Positions 36,735 to 57,690 of a DNA stretch of 64,000 bases are shown here, in pieces. The position numbers and the translations under genes were made by a program. The notes beneath the pieces were generated by a model. It was not told the origin of the DNA. It did not search any database and saw only the letters and a program-made list of their open reading frames with translations. Source of the DNA: Thermoanaerobaculia bacterium (lineage in GTDB: Bacteria; Acidobacteriota; Thermoanaerobaculia; Multivoradales; Multivoraceae); NCBI GenBank assembly GCA_963666565.1, contig OY762911.1, positions 2,848,001-2,912,000 of the forward strand, in the 5' to 3' direction. Positions within the stretch are counted from its first letter, which is position 1; every line of letters begins with the position of its first letter.

Positions 36735-36977
36735 ATGACGACTGTTCGATCCTACGAGGCAAAGACGCGGTTGCCCGAACTTCCGGGCGACGTGGAGCGG
36801 GGCGAGGTCGTGACGATCACGCGTCGCGGCAAGCCTGTCGCTCGCATCGTCGGCGCGAAGGGCGCCGAGGAGCCCGTAGCCGCGGTCGTCGAACGGATCA
36901 AGGCGGCGCGCAGCGAGCGTTCCGCCGTCACGACCGAGGAGATCCTCTCCGCTCGCGACGAGGGACGTCGCTTCTAG
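36735..36977 (+). CDS. Phd/YefM family antitoxin (orphan)
   Basis: MTTVRSYEAKTRL..VERGEVVTITRRGKPVARIV; AGGAGG RBS; no toxin gene follows. Confidence 0.82.
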   Translation: MTTVRSYEAKTRLPELPGDVERGEVVTITRRGKPVARIVGAKGAEEPVAAVVERIKAARSERSAVTTEEILSARDEGRRF

Positions 36978-36988
36978 TGGATCTTGGT

Positions 36989-37044
36989 TCGCCGGCAAAC
37001 TTGCCGGCGACACAGTTGACAGCCTTCCGTGGATTCACTACGAT
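36989..37044 (+). promoter_or_regulatory. sigma70-type promoter of the BREX operon with an upstream perfect inverted repeat
   Basis: TTGACA (37016-37021), 17 bp, TACGAT (37039-37044); TCGCCGGCAA-ac-TTGCCGGCGA at 36989-37010. Confidence 0.7.
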
Positions 37045-37052
37045 GCCCGGTC

Positions 37053-37841
37053 GTGGCCATCGAACAGCTACGCGCCGCCCCCGTGGCGGACCTTGAACGC
37101 GCCGGATTTCGCCTCGGCGCGCGCGGCACGCACACGAGCCGCACGATCATGCTGGAAGACCTGGGCGAACTCCTCGCGGCCGTTCCAACGGATAGCGACA
37201 GGAGCGTCTACGCCCACGCCGTCGTCGAAGACAACGTGCTCGGGAAGCAGACGGCGGCTACGCGGCGGCTCAGCTTTCAGCGGCTGCGCGAGCTTTACGG
37301 CCTCGACCCGCGGATACCCCTCTTCCGGGTGCTGCGGCGTCTTTGGGAGATCGACGAGGCGGGGCGGCCTCGGCTGGCCGTGCTCACGGCCATGGCGCGG
37401 GATCCTCTGCTCACGGCCACCGCGCCGGTCGTCGTGCTGTTGTCGCCGGGCGAGGAAATGATGCGTACCACGCTCCTTGAGAAGATCCGGGCAACCGTCG
37501 ACGACCGGCTCAACGACGCCGTGCTCGACAAGGTGGCGCGCAACGCCGGCAGTTCCTGGGTCCAGGCGGGCTTCCTCAGGGGCCGCGTGCGGAAGATCCG
37601 CCGCCGGGTCGCCCCGACGCCGGGAACCGTCGCTCTCGCGCTGTGGCTCGGACGGCTGGAGGGCTACGCGGTGGCCCGGCTGCTCGACTCGCCGTGGGCG
37701 CGGGTTGCCGGCGACGGCGGTCCGGGGGAGCTGCTGCCGGTCGCGCTCCGGGCGGGCCAGCTCGGCCTCGTCCGGGCACGCGCCGCGGCCGGCGTCCTCT
37801 CCATCGACGCTTCCATTCTCGACCCGGCGGTAGCGCGATGA
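37053..37841 (+). CDS. BREX-associated protein at the brxA position
   Basis: First gene of the operon, ATGA overlap with brxB; VEDNVLGKQTAATRR resembles BrxA-like proteins. GTG 37053 chosen because the ORF-track start (37029) lies inside the promoter. Confidence 0.65.
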   Translation: MAIEQLRAAPVADLERAGFRLGARGTHTSRTIMLEDLGELLAAVPTDSDRSVYAHAVVEDNVLGKQTAATRRLSFQRLRELYGLDPRIPLFRVLRRLWEIDEAGRPRLAVLTAMARDPLLTATAPVVVLLSPGEEMMRTTLLEKIRATVDDRLNDAVLDKVARNAGSSWVQAGFLRGRVRKIRRRVAPTPGTVALALWLGRLEGYAVARLLDSPWARVAGDGGPGELLPVALRAGQLGLVRARAAAGVLSIDASILDPAVAR

Positions 37842-38404
37842 CCCTCAGCCGCATCGACAGGCTGGCCCGGGCGTACGAACGCCACATCGGCGCGCCGTGG
37901 CAACGCACCCTCGCCGGCGCCCAGCGGGTCGTCTTCGTCGTCTACGACAAGGAGATGGAACGGGCGTTGCGCGCCAGGATCGGCCAGTTCAAGCAGGCGA
38001 CGGTGGGCGCCGGTCACGGCTGGAATCTGGTCGATTGCACCTCCTGGTTCGCGGAGTGGATGGCTCGCGACGAGTACCGCGACGCCTACTTCGAGGATCC
38101 GTCCCTGCTCGAACTGAAGCTCGAAAGCGAGTTCCGCGCCCAGTCGGCCCAGAAGCTCGCCATCGCCCTGGAGCAGGCGGGTGAGACCGACGTGGTCGCC
38201 CTGCTCGGCGTCGCGTCGCTGTACGGTTTCCTGCGCGTGTCCGACCTCATCCGCGCCGTGGAGCCGGCCGTCCGGGGCCGGCTCGTCGTCTTCTTCCCCG
38301 GCAGCAGGAACGAGAACAACTTCCGGCTGCTCGACGCGCGGGACGGCTGGAACTACCTGGCCCAGGCCATCACGCTCCACGATGAACAGGTGACCTTGCC
38401 GTGA
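37838..38404 (+). CDS. brxB: BREX protein BrxB (DUF1788)
   Basis: VFVVYD..E, LGVASLYGF, LVVFFPG..FRLLDARDGWNYLA; directly upstream of brxC. Confidence 0.85.
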   Translation: MTLSRIDRLARAYERHIGAPWQRTLAGAQRVVFVVYDKEMERALRARIGQFKQATVGAGHGWNLVDCTSWFAEWMARDEYRDAYFEDPSLLELKLESEFRAQSAQKLAIALEQAGETDVVALLGVASLYGFLRVSDLIRAVEPAVRGRLVVFFPGSRNENNFRLLDARDGWNYLAQAITLHDEQVTLP

Positions 38405-41400
38405 AGATCCACGAACTCCTCGACCGCGACCCGCGCGGCGCCCGCCTCGCGAACAACGGCCAGGCCCGTCTCGACGTGGAGGGCGGCCGATCCGAGGACG
38501 TGCTGCGCGAGGAACTCTCCACGTTCGTCTGCGACGGGCGCTTCGGTGATGCGCTGCAGCGCATCCTCGACCGCTACCTCGCGAACCTGGGCGCGGCGCG
38601 GCAGGACGCGGCCTGGGTCAGCGGGTTCTTCGGCAGCGGCAAGTCGCATTTGCTCAAGATGGCCGCGCACCTGTGGCGGAACACGAGCTTCGAGGACGGC
38701 TCGACGGCCCGCGGCGTGGCCGGGGAGTCTCTCCCCGGCGACGTGCAGGCCGCGCTGCGGGAGCTGGACACCCGGGCGACGCGCGCCGGCCGCCGCCCGG
38801 TCGCCGCAGCCGGCACTCTCCTGGGCGGCAACGACTGGGTCCGCCGCACCGTGCTCGAGATCGTCCTGCGCGCCCGCGGCTGGCCGGACCAGTACGCGCA
38901 GGCGAAGTTCTGCTTCTGGCTGCGGGACGAGGGTGCGCTGGACGCGGTGCGGGCGGCGGTCGAAGCCGGGGAAAGGGACTGGCTGCGGGAACTGAACAAC
39001 CTCTACGTCAGCCCCGTCCTCGCGGGCGCGGTGGTCGACGCGGTGCCGGGCTTCGCCGCCGACGTGAAGAACGCCATGCAGGCGTTGCGGGCGCAGTTCC
39101 CGCCGACCAGGGAGGACATCACCACGGAGCAGTTCGTCGACGCCGCCCGCCGCGCGCTCTCGGACGGCGACGAGCTTCCGCACACGGTGCTCGTGCTCGA
39201 CGAGGTCCAGCAGTACATCGGCGGCGACGAGGACCGGTCGTCGGCCATCACCGAACTCGCGGAGGCGATCCAGACCCGGTTCGACAGCCGGGTGATGCTC
39301 GTTGGCGCGGGCCAGTCGGCGCTGTCGGCCGACACGCCGCATCTGGCCAAGCTCCGCGACCGGTTCGTGATCCGGGTGGAGCTGACCGACGCCGACGTCG
39401 AGGCGGTGACGCGGCGCGTGCTGCTCAGCAAGAAGCAGAGCGCCGTTCCCGAGATCGAGAAGCTCTTCGAGACCCACGCCGGCGAGGTCGCCCGTCACCT
39501 GCGGAACACGCGCATCGGCGCCCGGCCGGAGGACGCCGGCCACCGGGTGGACGACTACCCGCTGCTCCCCGTCCGCCGCCGGTTCTGGGAGGCGTGCTTC
39601 CGGGCCGTCGATGCCGGCGGCGCGCAGAGCCAGCTTCGTTCCCAGTTGCGGATCCTGCACGACTCGCTGGACGGGCTCGCGTCGCGGGACCTCGGCGCCG
39701 CGATACCCGCGTCCGACCTCTTCGGCGCCCTCGCGCCGGACATGGTGAGCACCGGCGTTCTCCTCGGTGAACTCGACACGCGGATCAGGCGGCTCGACGA
39801 CGGGACGGACCGCGGCCGCCTGCGGCGCGACCTCTGCGGGCTGGCGTTCCTGATCGGACGGCTGCCCCGCGAGACCGCGGTCGACATGGGAGTGCGGGCC
39901 ACGCCGTCCGCCCTGGCCGACCTGCTCGTGACCGACATCACGCGGGACGCGTCGGCGTTCCGGCGCGACGTGGAGAGGGAGCTCGAGTCCCTCGCAGAGC
40001 GCGGCGAACTCCTCAAGGTGGGCGAGGAGTACCGCCTCCAGACCACGGAGGGCGCCGAGTGGGACCGCGCCTACCGCGAACAGGTCGCGGCGATGCGGCA
40101 GGACGAGGTCGAGATCGGGCGCGTCCGCAACCAGCTCTTCGGCAGGGAGGTTGAGGAGGCGGTGCGGTCTCTCCGCCTCATCCACGGCGAATCGAAGTTG
40201 CGACGCACGGTCAAGCTCCACGCCGGGGAGGAAGCGCCGGTGCCCGACGCCGAGGCCGTGGTCGTCTGGTGGCGCGACGGCTGGTCGGTTCGGCGGAACG
40301 CCGTGGAGAACGAGGCGCGGCGGGCGGGAGTCGAGGGTCCGACCCTGTTCGCCTGGCTGCCGCGCCGCAACGCGGACGAACTGCGCGAGCGGATCCTCGC
40401 CGTCGAGGCGGCGGGGCGGGTGCTCGACCTGAAGGGCAGCCCCGCCTCGCCCGAGGGGCGGGACGCGAAGGCGGGAATGGAGAGCCGGCGGGACGACGCC
40501 GTCCGCCAGCGCACCGAACTCGTCCTCGACGCGCTGCGGGCAGCGGCCGTCTACCAGGGCGGGGGCACGGAGGTCTACGGCGAGGACCTGCGCCAGCGGA
40601 TCGAGCGGGGCGCCGAGGCCTCGCTGGCGAGGCTCTTCCCGGAGTTCGACAAGGGCGACCACCGGGCCTGGGAGGTGGCGCTCCGCCGCGCCCGCGACGG
40701 CAACGACGCGCCGCTCCAGATCGTCGGTTGGGAGGGGCAGACGGCGGACCATCCGGTGGCCCGCGAAGTGCTCGCGAAAGCTGCGGCCGGCGCGCGCGGC
40801 ACCGAACTGCACCGGGCGCTCCGGGCCGCGCCGTTCGGCTGGCCGCAGGACGCGGTGGACGCCGTGCTGGTGGCGCTGCACCGGAGCGGACACCTGAGGG
40901 CCGTCCGCAACGGGGTCGACGTCGCGGTCGGCGCGCTGGACCAGGCCGGCATCAAGGCGGCGGAGTTCCGGCCCGAGAGGGTCGTGCTCACCGTGAGCGA
41001 CCGGATCGCCGTGCGCGGCCTGTTCCAGCAGGTCGGCGTCCGTGCGCGGAGCGGGGAGGAGGCGCAGTCCGCCCGGAGCTTCCTCGACCGTCTGCAGGAG
41101 CTTGCGGAGTCCGCCGGCGGCGCGGCGCCGCTGCCGCCCGTGCCCGAGACCGGCTTCATCGACGAACTCTCACGGCTTGCGGGCGCGGAACAGTTGGCCG
41201 CCATCCACGAGCGGCGCGAGAGCATCGGCGAGTCGATTGCCGCCTGGACGGCGCTGGCCGAGCGGCGGGAGGGCCGCGAACGGTTGTGGCGGCTCGCGGC
41301 GGGCCTGCGGCGGCATGCCCAGGGTCTCTCGGGCACGGACTCGCCGGAGCAGGAGTTCGAAGCGATCGAGCGGCAGCGATCGCTCCTCGCGGAGACCGAC

Positions 41401-41868
41401 CGCCTCGATCCCCTCGTGGGCCGGCTCGCCGGCGCACTGCGCGAGGAATTGACTGCGCGACGCCACAAGCTCACCGTCGCGGTGACCGGTGCCGCCGAGG
41501 CGCTGGCCGCGGACGCGACCTGGCAGCGCTTGGACCAGGGCGAGCAGGAGGAGATCCTCCGGCAGTGCCAGCTTGACCCGCCTCGCGAGACCCCGATCGC
41601 GACGCGCCAGGAGCTTCTCGCCAACCTCGACAACCGCCCGCTCGCCGCATGGCAGGCCGAGGCCGATGCCGTCCGCGAGCGCGCCTCCCGGGCGTTGGGC
41701 GAAGCGGCGACCCGGCTTGGCGCCGGTTCCGAGGACGAGCCGGCGCCGACCCGCGTCACGATCCGCCCCGTTACGCTTGCCGACGAGGTGGCCGTCCGGG
41801 ACTGGCTGCGGGAGCAGGAGGAGCGGCTGGTGGAGGCGGTGCGGAAGGGGCCGGTGGTGCTGCGGTGA
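38401..41868 (+). CDS. brxC: BREX P-loop ATPase BrxC
   Basis: WVSGFFGSGKSH Walker A, VLDEVQQYIG Walker B, KLRDRF, YPLLP, PFGWPQD; 1155 aa. Confidence 0.92.
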   Translation: MKIHELLDRDPRGARLANNGQARLDVEGGRSEDVLREELSTFVCDGRFGDALQRILDRYLANLGAARQDAAWVSGFFGSGKSHLLKMAAHLWRNTSFEDGSTARGVAGESLPGDVQAALRELDTRATRAGRRPVAAAGTLLGGNDWVRRTVLEIVLRARGWPDQYAQAKFCFWLRDEGALDAVRAAVEAGERDWLRELNNLYVSPVLAGAVVDAVPGFAADVKNAMQALRAQFPPTREDITTEQFVDAARRALSDGDELPHTVLVLDEVQQYIGGDEDRSSAITELAEAIQTRFDSRVMLVGAGQSALSADTPHLAKLRDRFVIRVELTDADVEAVTRRVLLSKKQSAVPEIEKLFETHAGEVARHLRNTRIGARPEDAGHRVDDYPLLPVRRRFWEACFRAVDAGGAQSQLRSQLRILHDSLDGLASRDLGAAIPASDLFGALAPDMVSTGVLLGELDTRIRRLDDGTDRGRLRRDLCGLAFLIGRLPRETAVDMGVRATPSALADLLVTDITRDASAFRRDVERELESLAERGELLKVGEEYRLQTTEGAEWDRAYREQVAAMRQDEVEIGRVRNQLFGREVEEAVRSLRLIHGESKLRRTVKLHAGEEAPVPDAEAVVVWWRDGWSVRRNAVENEARRAGVEGPTLFAWLPRRNADELRERILAVEAAGRVLDLKGSPASPEGRDAKAGMESRRDDAVRQRTELVLDALRAAAVYQGGGTEVYGEDLRQRIERGAEASLARLFPEFDKGDHRAWEVALRRARDGNDAPLQIVGWEGQTADHPVAREVLAKAAAGARGTELHRALRAAPFGWPQDAVDAVLVALHRSGHLRAVRNGVDVAVGALDQAGIKAAEFRPERVVLTVSDRIAVRGLFQQVGVRARSGEEAQSARSFLDRLQELAESAGGAAPLPPVPETGFIDELSRLAGAEQLAAIHERRESIGESIAAWTALAERREGRERLWRLAAGLRRHAQGLSGTDSPEQEFEAIERQRSLLAETDRLDPLVGRLAGALREELTARRHKLTVAVTGAAEALAADATWQRLDQGEQEEILRQCQLDPPRETPIATRQELLANLDNRPLAAWQAEADAVRERASRALGEAATRLGAGSEDEPAPTRVTIRPVTLADEVAVRDWLREQEERLVEAVRKGPVVLR

Positions 41869-41870
41869 GC

Positions 41871-43157
41871 ATGTCGATAACCACAGAACAACTCGCGTCA
41901 CGCATTCGGGCTGCAAGGGAGGCAACCGGCTTGACACAGGAGGCGGTGGCTGGCGCGCTGAAGCTCTCGCGCCCCGCCGTGTCGCAGATGGAGGCCGGGA
42001 ACCGGGCCGTGTCGGGCCTCGAACTCGAGCGCCTCGGGCGCCTTTTCGGGAGGCGCATGACCGACTTCTTCGACGATGCGTTCTCTCCCGAACGAGGCGC
42101 GGCCATCGCGCTCTTCCGCGCGCATCCGATTCTGAGCAGCGACTCCGACCTACGGGACGCGGTGGGGCTGGCACTGGAGTTCGGGCGTTCCGTGGCCCAC
42201 CTTGAGGACCGGCTCCAGATCGACAGGCGCGAGGTGGTGGCGTACGGCTATGGGACCGCCGCCATGAAGAACAAGTGGGATGCCATCCAGCAGGGAGAGC
42301 GCGTGGCCGGCGCGGAGCGGAACAGGCTGGGGCTGGGCATCGAGCCGCTGCCCGATCTCGTGGATCTGTTGGAGAGGCAGGGCGTGCGCGCCGTGGCGGC
42401 GTCGATGCCTGCCAAAGTGTCCGGCCTGACCCTGGTGGACGATGCGGCGGGCATCGTCGTCGCGGTCAATGGACGGCACGGGTTCAACCGGCAGCGCTTC
42501 TCGCTGGCCCGGGAGTACGCCCATGTCCTGTTCGACCGCGACAGGCAGGCCTGCCTGAGCCGCAGGGAGGACCAGGAATCGTCGATGGAGGTGCGGGCCG
42601 ACTCCTTCGCCGCCACTTTCTTGCTTCCGGCCGACGGTGTTCGTCGCTATGTCCACTACCTCGCCAAGGGGCGCGCGAGCCGGACTCGCCGCCAAGTCTC
42701 GGACGGCCGGGACGTTCAAACCGCGGAGCGCCGACGGCCTCCCGGCAGCCAGGGGCTGCGTCTGCACGACGTGGCAATGCTCGCTCATCACTTCGGCGTC
42801 AGCCGCGTGGCGGCGCTCTACCGCCTGAACGGCCTGGGGATCCTCACCGAACGGCAGCGGGCCGCTTTGGCCGAGTGGAACGTCGGCCACGGCGAACGCC
42901 TCGCGAGCCTGCTTGGTCTTCGGAACCCCGACGCCGCCCGCCGTCGCTTGCCTCGCAAGCGTCTCGTGACCCTCGGAATCGAGGCCCTGGAGCGGGAGAT
43001 CATCTCCTACAGCAAGCTCCGCGAGTTGGCCGGACTAGTGGGCGTGAGCGAGGACGATCTGGAGGAACTCGTGGTGGCCGCAGGAATCGACCCGAGACCG
43101 CCGGTTGATGTGTCGCCGGTGGACTGGGACGTTCTGAGAAGAGGATCGGTGAGGTAG
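41871..43157 (+). CDS. XRE HTH + ImmA/IrrE (Peptidase_M78)-like regulator with a degenerate zinc motif
   Basis: IRAAREATGLTQEAVA..SRPAVSQMEAGNR HTH; RQRFSLAREYAH instead of RFTLAHEYAH; EVRADSFAATFLLP. Confidence 0.88.
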   Translation: MSITTEQLASRIRAAREATGLTQEAVAGALKLSRPAVSQMEAGNRAVSGLELERLGRLFGRRMTDFFDDAFSPERGAAIALFRAHPILSSDSDLRDAVGLALEFGRSVAHLEDRLQIDRREVVAYGYGTAAMKNKWDAIQQGERVAGAERNRLGLGIEPLPDLVDLLERQGVRAVAASMPAKVSGLTLVDDAAGIVVAVNGRHGFNRQRFSLAREYAHVLFDRDRQACLSRREDQESSMEVRADSFAATFLLPADGVRRYVHYLAKGRASRTRRQVSDGRDVQTAERRRPPGSQGLRLHDVAMLAHHFGVSRVAALYRLNGLGILTERQRAALAEWNVGHGERLASLLGLRNPDAARRRLPRKRLVTLGIEALEREIISYSKLRELAGLVGVSEDDLEELVVAAGIDPRPPVDVSPVDWDVLRRGSVR

Positions 43158-45790: not shown

Positions 45791-45793
45791 CAG

Positions 45794-47596: not shown

Positions 47597-47599
47597 CCG

Positions 47600-48781
47600 A
47601 TGGCGACGATCCACACCCTACAGCTCGATGGTTTCTTGTCCTTCCCGCCGGGTTCGTCGGCGTTCGAGCTTCAGCCTCTGAACGTACTGATCGGACCGAA
47701 CGGCGCCGGCAAGTCGAACTTCATCGAGGCGTTCGAGCTTCTCGCGGCTGCGCCGGTGGACTTTGCCGCGGCAGTACGGAGTGGGGGCGGCGCGAAGGAA
47801 TGGCCGTGGAAGGGAGTGGGCGCTAGGTCCACCGCCCGCATCGAGACCGTGCTGGCTGATGGAACCCCGACTGGTCGGCCGCTTCGCCATGGCATCGAGT
47901 TCGGCTCGGTCGCCCGCCGGGCGGAGGTCCTCGACGAGGTGGTGGAGGAGACGAGGCCCTACGCGGGGAACGAGGACGTTTTCTTCTACTATCGGTTCCA
48001 ACAAGGCGAGCCAGCGATCAGCGTTCGCGAGGAAGGCGGCAAAGCGGTCCAGCGGAGCCTGAAGAGAGAGAACCTGCCTCCCGATCAGTCGGTCCTCGCT
48101 CGCTACAAGAGCGTCGACCTCTGCCCGGAAGTTGCGTGGGTCTCGGAGCGCTTCAAGGCGATTCGGACATTCCGTGAGTGGACGTTCGGCCGCTTCGCGT
48201 CGCTTCGGGAGCCGCAACGCTCCGACCTGCCGGACGACAGCCTGCTGCCGAACAACTTGAATCTCGCGCTTGTTCTGAACTACATCGGACACTCCGGCGC
48301 GACGCAACTGGAGCACGAGATGCGGCAGTTTCTCCCGCGGTTCGCACGCCTGTCCACGCGAGTCGCCGGCGGATCCGTGCAGTTCTACGTTCACGAGAAC
48401 GGATTGACCGCACCCATTCCGGCAAGCCGTCTCTCGGACGGCACGATGCGGTTCATGGCCATCCTTGTCACCTTGCTTCATCCCGACCCGCCTCCCCTTG
48501 TTTGCATCGAGGAGCCAGAGCTTGGGCTGCACCCGGACGCGGTTGTCGGGCTGGGGGACCTCCTCGTCGAGGCATCCTCGCGGATGCAGCTGGTCGTGAC
48601 GACGCACTCCGACGCTCTGGTTGCTGCTCTCTCCAACCGAGCAGACTCGGTCGTCACGTGCCAGTGGAAGGGCGGGGGAAGCGCCTTGGAGCGAGTTGAT
48701 CCGGAGCGGCTTCGCAGGTGGCTCCACGAATACACCTTGGGCGACATCTGGCGGATGGGCAAGCTGGGTGCGAACCCGTGA
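47600..48781 (+). CDS. ABC-type AAA ATPase (AAA_21/AAA_15-like)
   Basis: LIGPNGAGKSN, LSDGT signature, CIEEPELGLHPD, VTTHS. Confidence 0.9.
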   Translation: MATIHTLQLDGFLSFPPGSSAFELQPLNVLIGPNGAGKSNFIEAFELLAAAPVDFAAAVRSGGGAKEWPWKGVGARSTARIETVLADGTPTGRPLRHGIEFGSVARRAEVLDEVVEETRPYAGNEDVFFYYRFQQGEPAISVREEGGKAVQRSLKRENLPPDQSVLARYKSVDLCPEVAWVSERFKAIRTFREWTFGRFASLREPQRSDLPDDSLLPNNLNLALVLNYIGHSGATQLEHEMRQFLPRFARLSTRVAGGSVQFYVHENGLTAPIPASRLSDGTMRFMAILVTLLHPDPPPLVCIEEPELGLHPDAVVGLGDLLVEASSRMQLVVTTHSDALVAALSNRADSVVTCQWKGGGSALERVDPERLRRWLHEYTLGDIWRMGKLGANP

Positions 48782-49395
48782 CCGACATCGAGGTCTACAT
48801 GGAAGGCGGAGGCCGCACCGCCAGTTCGAGGGCGCTGCTCCGTGAAGGGGCGGAGGAGTTTCTTGGGGAACTTCGATCCGCTGCGCGAAGCCGGGGCCTC
48901 GAACTGAGGATCGTCTGCTGCGGCGGGCGAGGCGAGGCACGAGCCGACTTCGTCGAGGCAAGGAGCGAGGGGCGGTTCGCGGCGCTCCTGCTAGTGGACT
49001 CGGAGAAGCCGGTCGAGGGCGATCCCAGAACCCACCTCGTCACTCACGACGGCTGGGGGGATCTGGAACCGGCGTCCGAGAGCGAGATTCACCTAATGGT
49101 GCAGGTGATGGAGACCTGGCTCGTCGCCGATCCTCAGGCGCTCGCGAGGCACTATGGACCTGCCTTTCGCACGGACCTTCTGCCGGCGGACCAGGACTTG
49201 GAGACGGTAGAGAAGGAGACGGTGCTCGCGACCCTCGAAGAGGCTACTGCACCGACGTCGGAGGGCCGCTACCACAAGATCCACCATGCCAGACGGCTCC
49301 TCGGCCTGATCGACTCGGAGAGGGTCCAAGCGCGCTGCCCGCATTGCAAGCGGCTCTTCGAGATGCTGACGGCCTTGATCGAGGAGGCGGCCTGA
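48778..49395 (+). CDS. DUF4276 family (TOPRIM-like) protein
   Basis: IEVYMEGGG, CCGGR, LLVDSE, MVQVMETWLVAD, YHKIHH..CPHC; GTGA overlap with the ATPase. Confidence 0.8.
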   Translation: MTDIEVYMEGGGRTASSRALLREGAEEFLGELRSAARSRGLELRIVCCGGRGEARADFVEARSEGRFAALLLVDSEKPVEGDPRTHLVTHDGWGDLEPASESEIHLMVQVMETWLVADPQALARHYGPAFRTDLLPADQDLETVEKETVLATLEEATAPTSEGRYHKIHHARRLLGLIDSERVQARCPHCKRLFEMLTALIEEAA

Positions 49396-49396
49396 G

Positions 49397-52300
49397 ATGA
49401 CCGGAGCCCTAACGCCCGACCTCCGCAAGCAGTTGGAGAAGGCCGTCCGCTCCGCGCGCGCCGAAGGCGAGGCCGGCACTCGCGCTGCGCTGCGGGCGCT
49501 CGCGGTGGACGGCGCCCGGCCGCACGAGTCGATGTCCGCCGACGAGCGCAAGCTGCGGCGGCGGCTTCGCGCCCACGGCCGGCAGTTGGGCGACGTACGG
49601 GACCGGGAGAGCGGAGCGCAGGAGATCGGGCGGCTCGTCCACGAGGTCGCCTACGAGCACTGGCACCGGATGCTGTTCGCTCGGTTCCTGGCGGAGAACG
49701 GGTTGCTGGTCGAGCCCCGGTCCCGGGTTTCGGTATCGCTGGACGAGTGCGCTGAACTGGCGCGCGAAGCGGGCGCCACGGACGGCTGGCAGGTCGCCGA
49801 GAGGTTCGCTGCCGAGATGTTGCCCCGGATCTTCCGGCCAGACGACCCGGCCCTCGCGGTGACGCTGGCGCCGGAGACGCGGCAGAGGTTGGAGCGGCTG
49901 GTGGAAGATCTGCCAGACAGCGTGTTCACGGCGAGCGACGCGCTTGGCTGGACGTACCAGTTCTGGCAGGCGGACCGGAAGGAGGAGGTAAACCAGTCGG
50001 GCGCGAAGATCGGCGCGGACGAACTTCCCGCGGTGACGCAGTTGTTCACCGAGAACTACATGGTCCAGTTTCTGTTCCACAACACCATCGGCGCGTGGCG
50101 GGCCGGCAAGCACCTGGAGCAGCGGCCCGAACTGGCCGAGCGTGCCGCGAGCGAAGGGGAACTCGGGGCCGCCGTGCACATCGAACCGCGAGGCGGCCTC
50201 GACGGCTACGACTTCGACTACCTGCGGTTCGTCCGCGAACCGGCCGGCGACGACGGCGAGGATGTGGCCCGGACCTCGACTGGACCTTGGCGGCCAGCCG
50301 GCGGTGCCTTCCGCCGCTGGCCCGACCGGGCGGCGGACCTTCGGGTGCTGGACCCATGCTGCGGAAGCGGCCACTTCCTCATCGAGGGCTTGGAACTCCT
50401 GGTGCGGCTGCGCATGGAGGAGGAGGGCCTCGGGGTCGAGCACGCCGTCGGGGCCGTGTTGAGGGACAACCTGTTCGGACTGGAGATCGACCAGCGCTGC
50501 ACGCAGATCGCGGCTTTCAATCTTGCACTGGCCGCGTGGAAGATGGTGGGCCGCCCGATCGACTTGCCGCCGCCACGGATTGCCTGCTCCGGTCTCGCCG
50601 TGAGCGCTTCGAAGGACGACTGGGTGAGGCTTGCCGAGGGCGATCAACGTCTGGAAGGCACGCTCGACCGGCTCCACGACCTCTTCAAGCAGGGGCCCAT
50701 TCTCGGTTCGTTGATCGACCCGGCGGGGGTCGGCGAGGAACTGTTCCAGGCCGACTTCGCGACGGCGGAGCGCGCTCTGAGCCGGGCGGTCGCCCAGGAA
50801 GACGCCGGCGAGGAAGAGCGGGAGCGCGCGGTGGCGGCGCAGGGGATGTCGCGCGCCGCCGGACTGCTGGCCGGCGAGTACGACCTCGTGATCACCAACG
50901 TGCCCTATCTGGCGCGTCGCAAGCAAGCCGCGAGCCTGCAGGACTTCGCGCTCAAGAGTCACCCGGACGCTAAGGCCGACTTGGCGACCATTTTCGTGTC
51001 GAGGATTCTCCGGTGGCTCGGGACCGGCGGCGTTCAGGCGGTCGTCGCGCCGCAGAACTGGCTGTTTTTGACCAGCTATAGGAAGCTGCGCGAGCGGCTG
51101 CTCGCCGAACGGACGTGGCGATTCGTGGCGCGGCTGGGACCCGGCGCGTTCGAGACGATAGGCGGGCACGTCGTGAACGTCGCCATGGCCGTGCTGTCGG
51201 CCAAGAGGCCGGACGAAAACTGGCGCATGGCCGGCATCGACGTGTCGGCACCCCGCGGCGAGAAGCCGATTCCGGCGCGGAAGAAGGCGGAGTTGCTGCG
51301 GACTCGTGGGAGAAAGCCGGTCTCACAACTTCCGCAGGCTCGGCAGCGACGCAATCCAGATGCCGTGGTCAGGCTACTCGACTACGGAGAAGCGGTTCAG
51401 GTTCTTCTATCTGAGCATGCTCAGGGTCTTGCCGGCATACTGAACGGCGATTCTCTCCGTTTTCGTCGCATGGTGTGGGAGTTCCATCCCGTTCCGCCGG
51501 AGTGGGTCTTGCAGCAGACAAGCGTCGACGAACCGAGCTTCTTTGGCGGACATTCAGGAGTCATCTACTTCGATGAGGAGAACGGCCATCTCCGCGAGGA
51601 TGCTCTCGTTCGACGGGAGAGGCTTCACGACTCGGACCGCCGTGGCAACGCGGCATGGGGTCGGAACGGAATCGGCATCAGCCAGATGACGACGTTGCCT
51701 GCGACGCTGTACTCGGGGGCCAAGTTCGACTCCAACGTGGCGGTCATTCTCCCTAGAGAGGGGGCACTCGTTGAGTCAATCTGGTGCTACTGCTCCGCTC
51801 CCGAGTACGCGCGGGCCGTGCGGGAGATCGACCAAAAGCTGAATGTAACCAACGCCACGTTGGTGAAGGTTCCATTCGATCGAGGTCACTGGAGGAAGGT
51901 CGCCGCCGCCCGGTACCCCAACGGCCTCCCCGAGCCGTTCTCCGACGACCCGACTCAATGGCTTTTCCACGGCCACCCGTGCGGCTCGGTGGTCTGGGAC
52001 GAGGAGACGAAGTGGACCGCCCACGGTCCGCTCCGTGCAGACGCTTCCGTGCTCCACGTCGCCGTCGCGCGGCTCCTCGGCTACCGCTGGCCAGCGGAGC
52101 TCGACCCGGACATGCGGCTGGCGGCAGAGTCCCGAGAATGGGTCGAGCGGTGCCGGGAACTGCACCACTTCGCCGACGAGGACGGCATCGTCTGCCTTCG
52201 GGCAGCGGCTGGCGAGCTGCCGGCGGCCGACCGGCTGCGCTCCCTGCTCGCGGCCTCCTACGGCGAGGCGTGGTCCGACGGGAAGGAGGGCCAGCTTCTT

Positions 52301-53035
52301 GGTGCGGCCGGAAACGGCAAACGGCCGCCCAGGTCTCTGGACGAGTGGCTCCGCGACCGGTTCTTCGCCGAGCACTGCAGGCTGTTCCACAACCGGCCCT
52401 TCGTCTGGCACGTCTGGGACGGCCTCAAGAACGGCTTCCACGCGTTGGTGAACTGCCATCGCCTGTGCGGGCCGGATGGCGAAGGCCGGCGAACGCTGGA
52501 AGCGCTCGCGTACCGGCATCTGGGCGAGTGGATAGCTCGTCAGCGCGCGGCGCAGGGTCAGGATCGGGAGGGGGCGGACGCCCGGCTCGCCGCCGCCCTG
52601 GACCTTCAGCGGCAGTTGGAACTCATCCTGAAGGGTGAACCGCCTTACGACCTCTTCATCCGCTGGCGCCCGCTCCACGAGCAGCCGGTCGGCTGGGCGC
52701 CGAACCTCGACGACGGCGTGAGGCTCAACATCCGCCCCTTCATGCGGGCGGAACTCCAGTCCGGCGGCCGCAAGGGCGCCGGCATCCTCCGCGTCAGGCC
52801 GAACATCACCTGGAAGAAGGACCGCGGCAAGGAACCAGGGAGCCTTCGCCCTAGGGATGACTTCCCCTGGTTCTACTCCTCCGTTGGCCAAGGTACCGAG
52901 GTAGACCGCACGGACTACGCGGCGTCGCTGGAGGCGGATTTTGATGGCAACCGCTGGAACGACCTTCACTACTCACGGGCCGTCAAGGAGGCTGCCCGGA
53001 CGCGTGGACGGAGCGAGACGAGGGCGTCGGCGTGA
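49397..53035 (+). CDS. pglX: BREX adenine DNA methyltransferase PglX
   Basis: PAVTQLFTENYMV, LDPCCGSGHF (SAM binding), ITNVPY (motif IV), LDDGVRLNIRPF C-terminus. Confidence 0.92.
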   Translation: MTGALTPDLRKQLEKAVRSARAEGEAGTRAALRALAVDGARPHESMSADERKLRRRLRAHGRQLGDVRDRESGAQEIGRLVHEVAYEHWHRMLFARFLAENGLLVEPRSRVSVSLDECAELAREAGATDGWQVAERFAAEMLPRIFRPDDPALAVTLAPETRQRLERLVEDLPDSVFTASDALGWTYQFWQADRKEEVNQSGAKIGADELPAVTQLFTENYMVQFLFHNTIGAWRAGKHLEQRPELAERAASEGELGAAVHIEPRGGLDGYDFDYLRFVREPAGDDGEDVARTSTGPWRPAGGAFRRWPDRAADLRVLDPCCGSGHFLIEGLELLVRLRMEEEGLGVEHAVGAVLRDNLFGLEIDQRCTQIAAFNLALAAWKMVGRPIDLPPPRIACSGLAVSASKDDWVRLAEGDQRLEGTLDRLHDLFKQGPILGSLIDPAGVGEELFQADFATAERALSRAVAQEDAGEEERERAVAAQGMSRAAGLLAGEYDLVITNVPYLARRKQAASLQDFALKSHPDAKADLATIFVSRILRWLGTGGVQAVVAPQNWLFLTSYRKLRERLLAERTWRFVARLGPGAFETIGGHVVNVAMAVLSAKRPDENWRMAGIDVSAPRGEKPIPARKKAELLRTRGRKPVSQLPQARQRRNPDAVVRLLDYGEAVQVLLSEHAQGLAGILNGDSLRFRRMVWEFHPVPPEWVLQQTSVDEPSFFGGHSGVIYFDEENGHLREDALVRRERLHDSDRRGNAAWGRNGIGISQMTTLPATLYSGAKFDSNVAVILPREGALVESIWCYCSAPEYARAVREIDQKLNVTNATLVKVPFDRGHWRKVAAARYPNGLPEPFSDDPTQWLFHGHPCGSVVWDEETKWTAHGPLRADASVLHVAVARLLGYRWPAELDPDMRLAAESREWVERCRELHHFADEDGIVCLRAAAGELPAADRLRSLLAASYGEAWSDGKEGQLLGAAGNGKRPPRSLDEWLRDRFFAEHCRLFHNRPFVWHVWDGLKNGFHALVNCHRLCGPDGEGRRTLEALAYRHLGEWIARQRAAQGQDREGADARLAAALDLQRQLELILKGEPPYDLFIRWRPLHEQPVGWAPNLDDGVRLNIRPFMRAELQSGGRKGAGILRVRPNITWKKDRGKEPGSLRPRDDFPWFYSSVGQGTEVDRTDYAASLEADFDGNRWNDLHYSRAVKEAARTRGRSETRASA

Positions 53036-53257
53036 CGCCTACAGAGAATCGAGGGGCATTCAGGGCGTTGACCTGTTTACGAGCTGCTCGACGAGCGCGA
53101 GTTGCGCCTGACGATCTTCGCCGCTGGACCGTCGGAGGATTGAGGACTTTGCTGCGCGCCACGATTGCGCCGTTCGGACTCAGGGCGGGTCTCGTTGCCG
53201 GCGCCGATATGGACACCGTCGATCCCCAGGACAGGGCTTGAGGATTAGGAGAGAGCG

Positions 53258-55618
53258 TTGGCTTCCACCGCATCGCACACCGCTGAGGTCGCACCCGCCG
53301 CCGACACGATCCTCGGCCGCCTGATCGCCGCCCTCCGCGACAAGGCTGGCCCGCTGGACGGCCACGAACGGCCGGCCGCCGTCCTCTGGCCCGACCCGGA
53401 CGAAGAATGGCGTCCTCTGGTCGCCACCCTCCGCGAAAGGCTGCGTGAGTTCCTGACCCTTGGCGTTTACGACGAGGCGGCCCGGTGCGGCCCGGCCATC
53501 TGGCTGCGCGCGGCCGTCGACGGCGAGCTTGGCGGGGCGGCACCGACGAACGGGCGGCCGCCCATCCTGTACCTTCCCGCCGTCTCCCGCCAGCAGCTTC
53601 GCGCCGGCGACGACTGCCCGGACAATCTGAAGCCCCTGGTCGAACTTCTCTATCGGGGCGCCGTCTGGGCTCACCCGAACGGGCGGGAGTGGACGGTGCG
53701 GGCCTTCCTGAGTTCCCCGAAGTCGCTCGGCCTGGGCGTCCCGGACGATCGCGGTACGAGGCAGGCCATGCTGCAGGCTCTGCCGGAGGTCGCGGTGGCG
53801 CCGCTCGACCGGCTGGGAGGCAGGCGGCTCGACGCGGACTTCTTCCACCGCGTGTTGAGCCCCGACCCGCTGCGCGACGTGTTGCAGTGGCTGGGCGAAG
53901 GCGACGCAATGCGGTCCCGTCTCGGTCCGGAGCGGTGGGGCGCCTTCCGCAGCCGCTGCCGGGACGAACTCGACTTCGACCCGCAGACGGCGCCCGACGT
54001 AGCGGCCGGCGAGCGGCTGGGTACCGGCGAGGGCGAATGGGCGCGGGTATGGGAACGGTTCCTGGAAGCGCCGGAGAGTTACGAGTGGGTGGCCGACGTT
54101 CTGCTGCGGAGTCGACCGGCGGGCGTTCTTCCTTTCGAGTCGGAACGGTGGCCGGACCTGAATGCCGAGGCCGAGGAGGTTCTCCGGCTCCAACTCGAAG
54201 AACTGCGCGACCTGAGCCACGACGACGCCTGCCGGGATTTGCTCCAGGCGGAGGAGGAGCATGGCCGTCGCCGCTACTGGGTCTGGGCGGGTCTCGGGCT
54301 CTCGCCGCTGGCCGTCGTCTTGGCGCCTCTGGCGCGTCTGGCCGCGGAAGCGCGAACGACGCTGGCCGGCGGCACGCCCGGCGAGGTCGCCCGCGGCTAC
54401 GTCGAGCACGGATGGGCGGCCGATGCCGCGGCCCGCGAGGCCCTGGCCGCCGCCGGTGCCGCGGACCGGGAACTCGTCGCGGCGGTCGTCCGGCGCGTGC
54501 TGCTGCCGTGGCTCGAGGGCGGCGCCCAAGCCTTCCAGGCCGCCGCCGAGCGGGAGGCCCTGCCGGCGCGCGGCGGGCAGCCGCCGGTCGAAGCGGAGGA
54601 AGGAACGTGCCTGCTGTTCGTGGACGGTCTGCGCTACGAGCTGGCGCGCACGTTGGCTGATCTGCTCGAGGGGCGAGGCTTCGGCACGGACCTGCGGCAT
54701 CGCTGGGCGGCGCTGCCGACGCTGACGGCCACGGGCAAGCCGGCGGCGACGCCGGTGGCTGCCGATGTGACGGGGACGGAGCTCGGTGCCGACTTGACGC
54801 CGGCGTTCGCCGCGACCGGCCGGCGCGCCGACGCCGAGGCGCTCCGAACCGCCATCGAGGCGCGCGGCTACCAGGTGCTGGGCACCGGAACGCTCGACGC
54901 GCCGCTCGGCAGTCCCGCTCGCGGCTGGGCGGAAGAGGGCGCCATCGACAAGCTCGGGCACGAACTCGCCGCGGCCGACTTCGCCCGCAAGCTGCGCGAC
55001 GAGCTGGAGGCGCTCGCCGACCGCGTCGCGCGCCTCCTCGAAGTCGGCTGGAAGAGGGTCCGGCTCGTGACCGACCACGGCTGGCTGCAGATGCCCGGCG
55101 GGTTGCCCAAGGTCGACTTGCCTCAGCATCTCACCGTCAGCCGGGGCGCGCGCTGCGCCGCGGTGGCTGGCGCCTCGCAGCCAGACGCGCCGATGCCGCC
55201 GTGGCACTGGAACGCGAACGAGTCGTTCGCCTCGGCGCGGGGCGCCGGCGCCTTCCGCCGGTCGGTGGAGTACGCCCACGGGGGGCTCAGCATCCAGGAG
55301 TGCCTGGTTCCCGATCTGACGGTGCGTACGGCGGCTTCGACCGCCCCGAGCGCGCGGATCCGCACCGTCACCTGGCGCGGCTTCCGTTGCCTCGTCGAGG
55401 CCACGGCGGAAGCCGGAACGGTCGCCGCCGACCTGCGCCTGGCGGCGGAGCTGAGCCAGTCGGTCGCGGGGGCCGGCAAGCCCGTGGAGGCGGACGGCTC
55501 GGTCAGCCTGCTGCTCGCCGACGACGACCACGAACAATCGCGGCTGGTTCTCGTCCTTGTCGATGAGGAGGGTCGGATTCTCGACCGCCGCGAGACCGCT
55601 GTGGGAGAGGACTCGTGA
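53258..55618 (+). CDS. pglZ: BREX PglZ phosphatase-family protein (type B-like)
   Basis: AVLWPDPDEEW, GPAIWLR, LFVDGLRY, LPTLTATGK, VTDHGW, YAHGGLSIQE; TTG start with AGGAG RBS. Confidence 0.92.
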   Translation: MASTASHTAEVAPAADTILGRLIAALRDKAGPLDGHERPAAVLWPDPDEEWRPLVATLRERLREFLTLGVYDEAARCGPAIWLRAAVDGELGGAAPTNGRPPILYLPAVSRQQLRAGDDCPDNLKPLVELLYRGAVWAHPNGREWTVRAFLSSPKSLGLGVPDDRGTRQAMLQALPEVAVAPLDRLGGRRLDADFFHRVLSPDPLRDVLQWLGEGDAMRSRLGPERWGAFRSRCRDELDFDPQTAPDVAAGERLGTGEGEWARVWERFLEAPESYEWVADVLLRSRPAGVLPFESERWPDLNAEAEEVLRLQLEELRDLSHDDACRDLLQAEEEHGRRRYWVWAGLGLSPLAVVLAPLARLAAEARTTLAGGTPGEVARGYVEHGWAADAAAREALAAAGAADRELVAAVVRRVLLPWLEGGAQAFQAAAEREALPARGGQPPVEAEEGTCLLFVDGLRYELARTLADLLEGRGFGTDLRHRWAALPTLTATGKPAATPVAADVTGTELGADLTPAFAATGRRADAEALRTAIEARGYQVLGTGTLDAPLGSPARGWAEEGAIDKLGHELAAADFARKLRDELEALADRVARLLEVGWKRVRLVTDHGWLQMPGGLPKVDLPQHLTVSRGARCAAVAGASQPDAPMPPWHWNANESFASARGAGAFRRSVEYAHGGLSIQECLVPDLTVRTAASTAPSARIRTVTWRGFRCLVEATAEAGTVAADLRLAAELSQSVAGAGKPVEADGSVSLLLADDDHEQSRLVLVLVDEEGRILDRRETAVGEDS

Positions 55619-57690
55619 ACTCGCAGACTTCCCGGAACCTGGAGATGGACCGCCTGGACGAACTCGCCGCGGAGGCGTTCCCCGGCTATCTGGTGCGCAA
55701 GGACCTGGTGCGGCGCTACGCCCGGCAGTACCCGGTGCCCACCTACGTGGTGGAGTTCCTCCTGGGCCGCTACTGCGCGAGCGTGGACGAGGACGAGATC
55801 GAGGAGGGGCTGGTCGTCGTCAAGAGGCAGCTCGAAGGGCGGACCGTGCGCCCCAGCGACCAGGAGGTCTTCAAGTCGCGCGCCCGGGAGAACGGCTCGG
55901 TCAAGCTGATCGACATCGTCCGCGCCCGGCTCGACGCGCGCAACGACCGCTACGCCGCCGAACTGCCGAGCTTGGGCCTGCGCGGCGTCGACGTGGGCGA
56001 CGCCATCGTCACCGAGAACCAGCGGATGCTGACGGACGGCTTCTACGCCGAGGTGACGCTGGAGTACGACGCGGTGGCGGCACTGGAGGAGCGGGCCAAC
56101 CCGTTCCGCATCGCGTCGCTCCGGCCGATTCAGATGTCGGACCCGCGGGTGCTCGACGTGTTCGCGCGGGGCCGCCGGCAGTTCACGACGGACGAGTGGC
56201 GGGACTTCCTGATCCGCTCCGTGGGCCTCGAACCGGCGGCGCTGGACGAGCGGGCGAAGCGGGTCGCCCTGCTGCGGATGGTCCCCTTCGTGGAGCGGAA
56301 CTACGACCTGGTGGAACTCGGCCCGCGCGGCACCGGCAAGAGCCACATCTACCAGCAGATCTCGCCGTACTCGCACCTTCTCTCGGGCGGCAAGGCGACG
56401 GTGGCGAAGATGTTCGTCAACATGGCGAACGGCCAGCGCGGCCTGGTCTGCCAGTACGACGTCGTCTGCTTCGACGAGGTCTCCGGCGTCTCCTTCGATC
56501 AGAAGGACGGCGTCAACATCATGAAGGGCTACATGGCGTCCGGCGAGTTCAGCCGGGGCAAGGAGAGCATCCGCGCCGACGGCGGCATCGTCATGGTGGG
56601 CAACTTCGATGTCGACGTGGAGCAGCAACAGCGCATCGGCCACCTGCTCTCGCCCCTGCCCAGGGAGATGCGGGACGACACGGCATTCCACGACCGCATC
56701 CACGCCTACGCGCCGGGCTGGGACTTCCCGAAGCTGAACCCGGAGGACCACCTGACGGATCACTTCGGCCTCGTGACCGACTTCCTGAGCGAGTGCTGGA
56801 ACCAGTCCCGGCAGTCGACGCGGCTGGACGCGCTGCAGAACCGGGTCTTCTGGGGCGGCGCGCTCAGCGGCCGCGACATCGAGGCCGTGAACAAGACCTG
56901 TTCCGGTCTGCTGAAGCTCCTGTACCCCGACCGGGAGATGCCCATCGAGGAGGACGACCTGGAGTGGATCGTCCGGCTCGCCCTGGAGTCGCGCCGGCGC
57001 GTGAAGGAGCAGCAGAAGCGCTGCCTCAGGAGCGAGTTCGGCAACACCCACTTTTCCTTCACGCTGGGCGTGGACGGGGTGGAGCAATTCGTCGCCACGC
57101 CGGAACTCCACAGCGACGAGGCCATCGACAGCGACCCGCTGCCGCCCGGACAGGTCTGGGCCATCGGTCCCGGCGCCGGCGAGACGGGCGCCGGCCTGTA
57201 CCGCGTCGAGGTCGCGCTGGGGCCGGGAAGCGGCGCGAAGATCGTCAACTATCCCGTGCCCCCGGCCTTCCGCGAGAGCGTCAGGGTCGGCGAGCAGAAC
57301 CTGTACCGCGCCGCGAGGGAGCTTGTGGGACATCGCGACCCGCGCGGCTTCGAGTACTCGGTGCAACTCCAGTCCTTCGATGCCGACAAGTCCGGCGTCG
57401 GCCTCGGCATGCCGGTGCTCGCCGCCTGCGTCGGCGCGCTGCTCGACCGCGGAACCCGTGGCGGCGCGATCGTCGTGGGCCCGCTCAACCTCGGCGGCAG
57501 TCTGGACATGCTCCATCACCCCGTCTCGATCGCGGAACTGGCCGTCGACAAGCAGGCGACGACCCTGCTCATGCCGGTCAGCGCGAGGAAGGCGCTGAAC
57601 GAGATGGCGGACGAGCTGTGGACGAAGGTGAACGTCGAGTACTACAGCGACCCGGTGGATGGGGTGTTCAAGGCGTTGCTGCCTCAATGA
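55615..57690 (+). CDS. brxL: Lon-related BREX protein BrxL
   Basis: VPTYVVEFLLGRYC, ELGPRGTGKSH, YDVVCFDEV, MKGYMASGEFSRG, C-terminal Lon-like domain; the start could be ATG 55645. Confidence 0.93.
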   Translation: MNSQTSRNLEMDRLDELAAEAFPGYLVRKDLVRRYARQYPVPTYVVEFLLGRYCASVDEDEIEEGLVVVKRQLEGRTVRPSDQEVFKSRARENGSVKLIDIVRARLDARNDRYAAELPSLGLRGVDVGDAIVTENQRMLTDGFYAEVTLEYDAVAALEERANPFRIASLRPIQMSDPRVLDVFARGRRQFTTDEWRDFLIRSVGLEPAALDERAKRVALLRMVPFVERNYDLVELGPRGTGKSHIYQQISPYSHLLSGGKATVAKMFVNMANGQRGLVCQYDVVCFDEVSGVSFDQKDGVNIMKGYMASGEFSRGKESIRADGGIVMVGNFDVDVEQQQRIGHLLSPLPREMRDDTAFHDRIHAYAPGWDFPKLNPEDHLTDHFGLVTDFLSECWNQSRQSTRLDALQNRVFWGGALSGRDIEAVNKTCSGLLKLLYPDREMPIEEDDLEWIVRLALESRRRVKEQQKRCLRSEFGNTHFSFTLGVDGVEQFVATPELHSDEAIDSDPLPPGQVWAIGPGAGETGAGLYRVEVALGPGSGAKIVNYPVPPAFRESVRVGEQNLYRAARELVGHRDPRGFEYSVQLQSFDADKSGVGLGMPVLAACVGALLDRGTRGGAIVVGPLNLGGSLDMLHHPVSIAELAVDKQATTLLMPVSARKALNEMADELWTKVNVEYYSDPVDGVFKALLPQ

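Follow-up and report, generated by a model that had tools for sequence, protein, structure and literature searches.

Is a reverse transcriptase (RT) encoded alongside a nitrilase within a BREX operon a built-in part of that system, or a defence in its own right that is housed there? The question is raised by a 64,000-nucleotide stretch of contig OY762911.1 from a Thermoanaerobaculia bacterium (positions 2,848,001 to 2,912,000; hereafter the window, whose numbering we use throughout), in which an earlier note saw a BREX operon at 37053-57690 with a built-in RT-nitrilase module and proposed a new composite defence system. We propose that the brxC-pglX junction of this operon acts as a cargo slot, which here would hold three separable add-on defence modules, and that the RT-nitrilase pair is probably an autonomous abortive-infection layer analogous to DRT1, housed in that slot and co-transcribed with BREX.

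Matches to PADLOC hidden Markov models (HMMs) identified 37053-57690 on the + strand as a complete type 1 BREX operon, with the six core genes brxA, brxB, brxC, pglX, pglZ and brxL in that order on one strand (E-values from 1.5e-79 to 0). PADLOC and Pfam placed five additional + strand genes between brxC and pglX, and the gene content and order given in the earlier note were thereby confirmed. The five genes, here called cargo, encode an XRE-type helix-turn-helix (HTH) protein with an M78 peptidase domain (XRE-M78), the RT, the kinase-like/nitrilase protein, and an ABC-type ATPase with a DUF4276 partner corresponding to the candidate pair HEC-01 (Table 1).

Comparison within the genus of the window genome showed that this cargo turns over. 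BrxC of the window type occurs in 13 of 31 genomes of the genus, the window's included (59-84% identity among the others), which provided 13 readable brxC-pglX intervals (the window and L060-L071). Intact RT and nitrilase genes occupy three of these (the window, L062 and L071, the latter two being the same places as loci L015 and L004 of the RT survey described below), and a DUF6161-like and HNH-like gene pair fills another three (L063, L066 and L067). HEC-01, with or without XRE-M78, is the only recognised module in two (L060 and L064); single intervals carry a Dsr1-like SIR2 protein (L065) or a DUF6161-like gene with 2.7 kb of unread sequence (L068), and three are empty (L061, L069 and L070). 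HEC-01A is present in 8 of the 13. Two intervals retain only a 3' remnant of the nitrilase gene, its last ~100 codons (L066 4910-5233 and L067 4848-5159, reverse complements), located immediately upstream of HEC-01A or pglX and downstream of a cargo pair of another kind, and this looks like the footprint of a cassette replacement. Because the content of the slot varies to this extent within one genus, we regard the RT-nitrilase pair as exchangeable cargo and not as the built-in component of BREX that had been suggested. Nor did the idea of a single five-gene module stand, as RT and nitrilase genes occur without XRE-M78 in L006 and without HEC-01 in L004, and HEC-01 and XRE genes occupy the same slot without an RT in L047, L049, L060 and L063-L068. 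A metagenome scan for BrxC added three loci, two of them near-identical, with BrxC 90-91% identical to that of the window and no RT (L047-L049). The cargo of L049 is a Dsr1-like gene with HEC-01 and that of L047 and L048 a DUF6161-like/HNH-like pair with HEC-01A; the BrxC proteins of L047 and L049 are 95.5% identical, yet their cargo differs.

Two of these alternative cargoes can be described further. In L047, the XRE gene is followed by genes for a DUF6161-like protein of 395 aa and an HNH_5-like protein of 386 aa (13382-14569 and 15791-16951), and this pair recurs in L059, L063, L066 and L067. Both labels are protein-atlas leads only (scores 0.95 and 0.83, the HNH_5 signal being weak), neither protein had a PADLOC match, and the pair may represent an undescribed embedded module. 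The Dsr1-like SIR2 protein of ~1176 aa takes the place of the RT-nitrilase pair in L049 (13539-17069) and L065 (1853-5407, reverse complement).

The RT itself is poorly captured by existing models. Its fingers and palm span residues ~40-460, with the FADD motif at 348-351, followed by a helical C-terminal half. Pfam RVT_1 matched at 2.3e-05, below the model cut-off, PADLOC Drt1a at 2.5e-04, and PADLOC RT_UG6 at 6.7e-21 (72.5 bits) over part of the model, profile positions 171-357 of 925; no NCBIfam model exceeded its cut-off for either the RT or the nitrilase protein. Across 24 sequences, D220, F348, A349 and D350 are invariant and D351 is at least 90% conserved, so that the catalytic aspartates are retained. 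A phmmer search of the PDB with the RT returned no matches at E<=0.01, and a profile of the family matched retron and group II RTs, with DRT1 (9yfd) at E=0.011. The RT fold was confirmed on the AlphaFold model (pLDDT 79.4), for which the top Foldseek matches were group II, G2L4, DRT9 and diversity-generating retroelement RTs; 9yfd was not among the matches of this fold search, whose library extends to 2026-04-08 and may not contain it. Conservation of residues 18-50 in 24 homologues backs the start at 43157. The publicly available protein (P0004, 824 aa) begins 53 codons later, leaving out 43157-43315 of the window, and its annotated gene is probably 5'-truncated.

The 600-aa protein encoded downstream had no Pfam match and was recognised by PADLOC (RTasNitrilase 5.3e-35, RT_UG5-nitrilase 2.2e-26, and also Drt1a). 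DRT1 9yfd was its sole phmmer match in the PDB, with C459 aligned to the catalytic C1116, and E328, E379, K403 and C459, which make up a Glu-Lys-Cys active site, are invariant in 11 sequences. In the predicted structure (pLDDT 70.5), the nitrilase fold was confirmed by VIA-align, which matched residues 265-588, as a C-N hydrolase fold, to the nitrilase-superfamily amidase 6ypa_A (Z 12.9, rmsd 3.4, 204 aligned); Foldseek against the PDB returned nothing at E<=0.001, its best match being 6ypa_D at 1.5e-02. Residues 1-225 (45794-46470) match a protein-kinase C-lobe (4a7c_A, Z 9.6, rmsd 3.8, 160 aligned), and this kinase-like domain would sit between RT and nitrilase in the fused homologues. Homologues are either RTs of ~880 aa or fused RT-nitrilases of ~1455-1492 aa, and the loci that we fetched comprise 14 with a single fused open reading frame (ORF) and 15, including the window, split at the identical point. 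Because fused and same-point split homologues both occur, an association of the two proteins is implied, and we take RT and nitrilase protein to be, on this sequence evidence, two halves of one machine. With their catalytic residues invariant, both look active.

Nitrilase-linked RTs form class 3 of the UG/Abi RTs according to the main text of Mestre 2022. The window pair shares with the members of this class (DRT1/UG1; UG5-small and UG5-large, equal to DRT5S/L and DRT11; and UG6) a YxDD-type RT fused to or followed by a Glu-Lys-Cys nitrilase, and it appears closest to UG6, as placed by HMM matches and nitrilase linkage. Like UG5, with its UG5-large and UG5-small forms, the family exists in fused and split versions, but its proteins are much larger than those of UG1 and UG5 (877 plus 600 aa, or ~1470 aa when fused). 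UG6 is described in the same source as having a separate nitrilase, a DnaG-type primase (cluster 192) and a kinase-like C-terminal domain, and its defence role is rated inconclusive there. The kinase-like domain of the window family recalls that of UG6, and the best PADLOC matches were RT_UG6 and RTasNitrilase; however, coverage falls well short of the full-length UG6 model, the kinase C-lobe-like fold is carried on the nitrilase chain and not on the RT chain, and the nitrilase gene, separate here, is fused in 14 relatives. No DnaG-type primase was found in the five cargo genes or in 46 scanned neighbour proteins of related loci, a scan that did not take in every neighbour. A protein cluster upstream of some RTs (C7) was considered as a primase and rejected, as it is an AAA-ATPase_like and PDDEXK_9 protein, and no transmembrane partner for the RT-nitrilase pair was found.

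What such a machine might do is suggested by its characterised relatives. The main text of PMC13275509 reports that DRT1 and DRT5S/L carry out protein-primed synthesis of DNA without a template, that the adducts of DRT1 drive a dormant filament whose nitrilase causes abortive infection, both active sites being required, and that DRT1 defends alone in E. coli through the nitrilase Cys; a UG5 RT-nitrilase is likewise sufficient for defence by itself in the account of PMC13436386. By analogy with DRT1, we propose that the window RT would make template-free, protein-primed DNA, that this synthesis would assemble RT and nitrilase protein into a dormant oligomer, and that a phage cue would free the nitrilase to abort infection. 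The pair would work without BREX, with embedding providing co-expression and co-transfer, and it would form an abortive-infection layer behind a methylation-based first line.

The wider distribution of the family bears directly on this proposal. The RT is rare (169 representatives at E<=1e-30 among 1.84 billion) and present in 3 of 401 genomes of a phylum sample, and no relatives were found in viral contigs, nor in phages or plasmids (tblastn, 1e-10). A scan of species-representative genomes yielded 43 RT loci, whose contexts were read by tblastn with window and type 3 proteins, neighbour clustering, PADLOC and Pfam. Eleven lie inside BREX. Four are of type 1, with RT and nitrilase genes between brxC and pglX (L004, L005, L006 and L015), and seven of type 3, comprising five intact operons with the pair directly after pglXI (L008, L009, L010, L012 and L030), one degraded remnant (L036) and one contig end with pglXI immediately 5' of the RT (L040). 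One further RT is found in a class 1 DISARM system between drmMI and drmA (L035), and in another locus (L020) the flanking genes are DISARM-like and lie on the opposite strand. The remaining 30 loci had no detected BREX or DISARM, five of them being too short to judge (L022, L025, L037, L038 and L039). In the BREX loci and L035, the RT is encoded on the operon strand, adjoining or near a methyltransferase gene. The closest RTs to that of the window are those of the four type 1 loci (65-70% identity), and the earlier expectation that close RT homologues would recur between brxC and pglX was therefore borne out in all four nearest relatives, with the seven type 3 loci extending it to a second type of BREX.

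A quick IQ-TREE phylogeny of 35 RTs, from which L002, L003, L034, L036, L038 and L040-L045 were omitted for having fewer than 560 aligned residues, placed the type 1 set in one clade (SH-aLRT 100), grouped four type 3 RTs with one non-BREX RT (support 90) and left L030 unresolved; an 11-member clade of fused forms contains no BREX locus. These data point to at least two BREX-embedding lineages in addition to the DISARM cases. Kinship analysis assigned the Acidobacteriota genomes holding L004 and L015 to the same genus as the window genome, so the type 1 clade represents one lineage, and a cross-phylum transfer of the type 1 composite was rejected.

Type 3 operons follow the order BrxF, BrxC/DUF6079, sometimes a Schlafen-type gene, PglXI, sometimes BrxH, then PglZ and BrxA. 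Among the five intact RT-bearing examples, which span three phyla, pairwise RT identities (46-69%) correlate with those of BrxC (51-75%; Spearman coefficient 0.85), a value resting on 10 non-independent pairs from loci selected by their RT. The unbiased phylum sample of 401 genomes included 10 with type 3 BrxC; the RT-nitrilase pair was lacking from all four complete loci (L073-L076), and L077 ends 1.2 kb after pglXI. We considered a replacement of the BrxH helicase by RT-nitrilase in type 3 BREX and rejected it: tblastn did not find BrxH in L008, L009 and L030, but it was also missing from three of the four RT-free loci (L074-L076). The pglXI-pglZ junction of BREX-like type 3 operons lacking BrxH ranges in length from 35 nt to several kb.

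All annotated RT neighbourhoods are defence-related. Among the proteins recognised in a scan of 28 neighbours from the non-BREX/DISARM loci and L035 were ShosA, an HmaB-like methylase, a DruE-like helicase, two Ppl-like ATPases, PDC-S06, a NACHT protein, an Mrr-helicase and an E1/E2/JAB/patatin protein; the scan showed no BREX or DISARM core proteins other than the DISARM genes of L035 itself. The class 1 DISARM of L035 (173-21686) carries three consecutive modules, a PARIS-like AriAB fusion, an RT-nitrilase in fused form (1369 aa) and SoFic. In L028 (11938-13108) and L029 (11797-13269), 1.2-1.5 kb of inserted sequence splits the RT gene; the insert of L029 is probably an insertion sequence, since it contains a 462-aa ORF of which a second copy lies 1 kb upstream.

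How would the cargo be expressed? The reported tight packing from brxA to pglX, with every junction an overlap or a gap of at most 3 nt, agreed with our start readings: -4 nt for both brxA/brxB and brxB/brxC, -4 nt for brxC/xre (or +2 if the ATG at 41871 is used), then -1 (xre/RT), +3 (RT/nitrilase), +3 (nitrilase/ATPase), -4 (ATPase/DUF4276) and +1 nt (DUF4276/pglX); a 222-nt gap follows between pglX and pglZ, and pglZ/brxL overlap again (-4 nt). Because the genes share one strand and are packed this tightly, the cargo is probably co-transcribed with BREX, from the promoter region of brxA, and in part translationally coupled to it. A consensus scan of 36000-55999 for sigma-70-like sites returned a single one, at 37016-37044 (one found vs 0.6 expected by chance, which is weak evidence), and none within the insert; as a consensus match only, this site would yield a near-leaderless brxA mRNA. 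Rfam gave no matches at gathering score in 35000-60000. Base composition sets the cargo apart, and the lower G+C of the RT and nitrilase genes relative to brxC that had been remarked on was reproduced (0.648 and 0.650 vs 0.737), more so at third codon positions (GC3 0.712 and 0.742 vs 0.930). The five cargo genes have GC3 values of 0.71-0.83, RT and nitrilase being lowest, vs 0.84-0.95 for the six BREX genes, and the same deficit is seen in L005, L006, L047 and L049.

XRE-M78 (Pfam HTH_3 1e-09, Peptidase_M78 2.3e-12) matches 15 PADLOC models of RmrA (best 2.6e-26) as well as capP and capH, and in 9 of the 13 genus intervals the cargo begins with it, irrespective of what lies downstream. RmrA is the antitoxin of RosmerTA, described in the source main text as carrying a Zn-peptidase and paired with a toxin of unknown function. 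The window protein shares the RmrA architecture and lies upstream of variable, probably toxic genes, but it does so inside BREX, no window cargo protein matched RmrT in PADLOC, and its zinc motif is degenerate: 14 of 14 homologues of related loci have HExxH, whereas the window has RExxH (R216, codon CGG at 42510-42512, two changes from a His codon). Because RExxH replaces HExxH, the peptidase may be inactive in the window genome. HEC-01 is represented by full-length, adjacent matches to both HEC-01A and HEC-01B, overlapping by 4 nt. The main text of Payne 2024 presents it as an Hma-embedded candidate with an ABC ATPase and a TOPRIM-like partner that gave no protection in published assays; the window pair is likewise embedded in a methylation-based system, though its host is BREX and not Hma. 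It is not PARIS, as the ATPase matches AriA weakly (2.1e-33 vs 1.8e-140 for HEC-01A) and its partner is a DUF4276 protein in place of AriB (a DUF4435 TOPRIM).

That the RT-nitrilase pair acts autonomously is, in our view, the probable explanation, given that the majority of the family is found outside BREX, in many cases as one fused gene. Several observations weigh against it. For a passenger, the embedded share is high (BREX of two types holds 11 of 43 loci, with one more inside DISARM and one flanked by DISARM-like genes), the covariation of RT and BrxC identities in type 3 loci suggests long co-inheritance, and expression of an insert without an intergenic promoter may depend wholly on BREX. 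The DRT1 analogy is also remote at sequence level (a partial UG6 match of 72 bits and a DRT1 profile match at E=0.011), and HEC-01 gave no protection in the single test reported in the main text of Payne 2024. The embedding, the operon-strand position near a methyltransferase gene in the BREX loci and L035, the covariation across three phyla and the coupling-type junctions of the window would fit a guard, in which RT-nitrilase is restrained by or senses BREX or DISARM and fires when a phage evades or inhibits methylation immunity, as PrrC does for EcoprrI; the cited papers provide this precedent and argue that PARIS within BREX is a response to Ocr. We nevertheless think a guard unlikely. Within a single genus, the cargo can be absent or replaced (intact RT-nitrilase in 3 of 13 intervals, remnants in two), and this turnover weakens the idea; BREX and DISARM went undetected in 30 of 43 loci, among them all 11 members of the fused clade; type 3 BREX lacks the pair in all four complete sampled loci; the characterised class 3 relatives act alone in the published main texts; and an argument from constant presence in these BREX loci is circular, the loci having been found by RT search. 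None of our results supports a guard role triggered by Ocr or depletion of S-adenosylmethionine, as the earlier note envisaged, and by analogy with PARIS such a role would suit HEC-01 better than the RT. In a more far-reaching version, which we likewise judge improbable, the RT/kinase-like/nitrilase family would be a specialist companion of BREX and DISARM with a trigger tied to the state of the host system, such as an inhibited methyltransferase complex or BREX-generated DNA ends; if true, it would be the first RT-based 'guard' of an epigenetic defence.

Compatible with an autonomous RT-nitrilase pair as a regulatory layer, and doubtful though deserving more credence than a guard, is the possibility that XRE-M78 is the switch of a RosmerTA-like cassette, repressing or neutralising the toxic effector that follows (RT-nitrilase in the window, a Dsr1-like SIR2 protein or a DUF6161/HNH pair in other operons) and releasing it on a phage or DNA-damage cue. 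Its leading position whatever follows, its RmrA, capP and capH matches and the pairing of an HTH/Zn-peptidase antitoxin with a toxin in published descriptions of RosmerTA are consistent with this; against it, RT and nitrilase genes stand without XRE-M78 in L006, only HEC-01 follows it in L060, the RExxH motif suggests that the window peptidase may be inactive, neither an operator nor a promoter was identified, and homologues (cluster C1) occur in just 6 of the 43 RT loci (L004, L005, L013, L015, L016 and L020), with an opposite-strand tblastn match in L028. We consider it very unlikely that the RT-nitrilase pair is a decaying or non-defence passenger without present function. The split into two genes, the inconclusive rating of UG6 in the main text of Mestre 2022 and the evident decay elsewhere in the family (L066 and L067 retain nitrilase remnants, the RT of L036 is truncated and those of L028 and L029 are interrupted) could be read in that way, but both window ORFs are full length with invariant catalytic residues, the split falls at an identical point in 15 loci, and every annotated neighbourhood is defence-related.

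Embedding of one defence within another is a known arrangement. The Payne 2024 preprint on 'guilt by embedding' puts the number of non-redundant genes embedded in BREX, DISARM and restriction-modification systems at 17,432 in its main text, 96.7% of them in the orientation of the host system, and according to the NAR 2026 BREX survey at least 4363 taxa have backup nucleases. As with BrxU in the BREX of pEFER and PARIS-like OLD-ABC modules, the window cargo lies on the same strand within the core operon, in a slot whose content varies among related operons. The two main texts mention nucleases, modules with an ABC ATPase, GmrSD and a single instance of DRT type III, with HEC-01 among the Payne candidates; 'nitrilase' and 'reverse transcriptase' have no occurrences in them, although supplements may list such genes, nor does 'BREX' occur in the main texts of Mestre 2022 and PMC13436386. 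A full-text literature search covering main texts found no description of an RT-nitrilase inside BREX. The composite thus belongs to a familiar type of arrangement, embedding as such being already catalogued in both surveys; what appears new is the poorly modelled RT/kinase-like/nitrilase family and its high embedded fraction. The locus and its relatives provide guilt-by-embedding evidence for a large RT-nitrilase family barely recognised by current HMM sets. The genus represents a natural series: the same BREX backbone is found with RT-nitrilase, with a nitrilase remnant, with a SIR2 protein, with a DUF6161/HNH pair or without cargo, so that one can test directly whether such modules work on their own, serve as a back-up of BREX or require it. 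The split and fused forms with their kinase-like domain are also relevant to the coupling between DNA synthesis by class 3 RTs and a nitrilase effector.

Table 1. Features of the BREX operon, its cargo and the adjoining defence gene, in window coordinates.
Feature	Position	Strand	Basis and remarks
Candidate sigma-70-like promoter site	37016..37044	+	Consensus TTGACA-17-TACGAT, just 5' of brxA
brxA	37053..37841	+	PADLOC BrxA PDLC02450 1.5e-79; alternative start 37083
brxB	37838..38404	+	PADLOC BrxB 2.8e-69; Pfam BrxB 1.4e-08; ATGA overlap with brxA
brxC, P-loop ATPase, 1155 aa	38401..41868	+	PADLOC BrxC PDLC02489 E=0, full length
Cargo 1, XRE-type HTH fused to M78 (ImmA/IrrE) peptidase domain, RmrA-like	41865..43157	+	Pfam, PADLOC
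Cargo 2a, reverse transcriptase, 877 aa	43157..45790	+	PADLOC, profile, AF2/Foldseek
Cargo 2b, kinase-like/nitrilase protein, 600 aa	45794..47596	+	PADLOC RTasNitrilase, phmmer, VIA-align
Cargo 3a, HEC-01A, ABC-type ATPase	47600..48781	+	PADLOC HEC-01A 1.8e-140; Pfam AAA_21 4.1e-35
Cargo 3b, HEC-01B, DUF4276	48778..49395	+	PADLOC HEC-01B 1.9e-60; Pfam DUF4276 8.2e-16
pglX, BREX methyltransferase	49397..53035	+	PADLOC PglX E=0; Pfam Eco57I and N6_Mtase
pglZ	53258..55618	+	PADLOC PglZ 2.4e-247; 222-nt gap before
brxL, Lon-like	55615..57690	+	PADLOC BrxL 7e-280; Pfam BrxL_ATPase 3.2e-126
AbiJ-like gene, outside operon	57967..58923	+	Pfam AbiJ_NTD3 2.6e-54, Abi_C 1.9e-23

Further along the operon, cargo also sits at the pglX-pglZ junction. 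This second slot is empty in the window (53036-53257), and in several related operons (L006 18344-21094 and L063 10401-13157, as well as L061, L067, L068 and L070) it is filled by a Ppl-like ATPase of ~916 aa. The island is bordered upstream by a glycosyltransferase/GtrA gene and downstream by the AbiJ-like gene and a carboxylesterase gene. The AbiJ-like gene, 276 nt 3' of brxL and with the lowest G+C content of the region (0.59), closes the defence island as an additional defence gene that was acquired separately.

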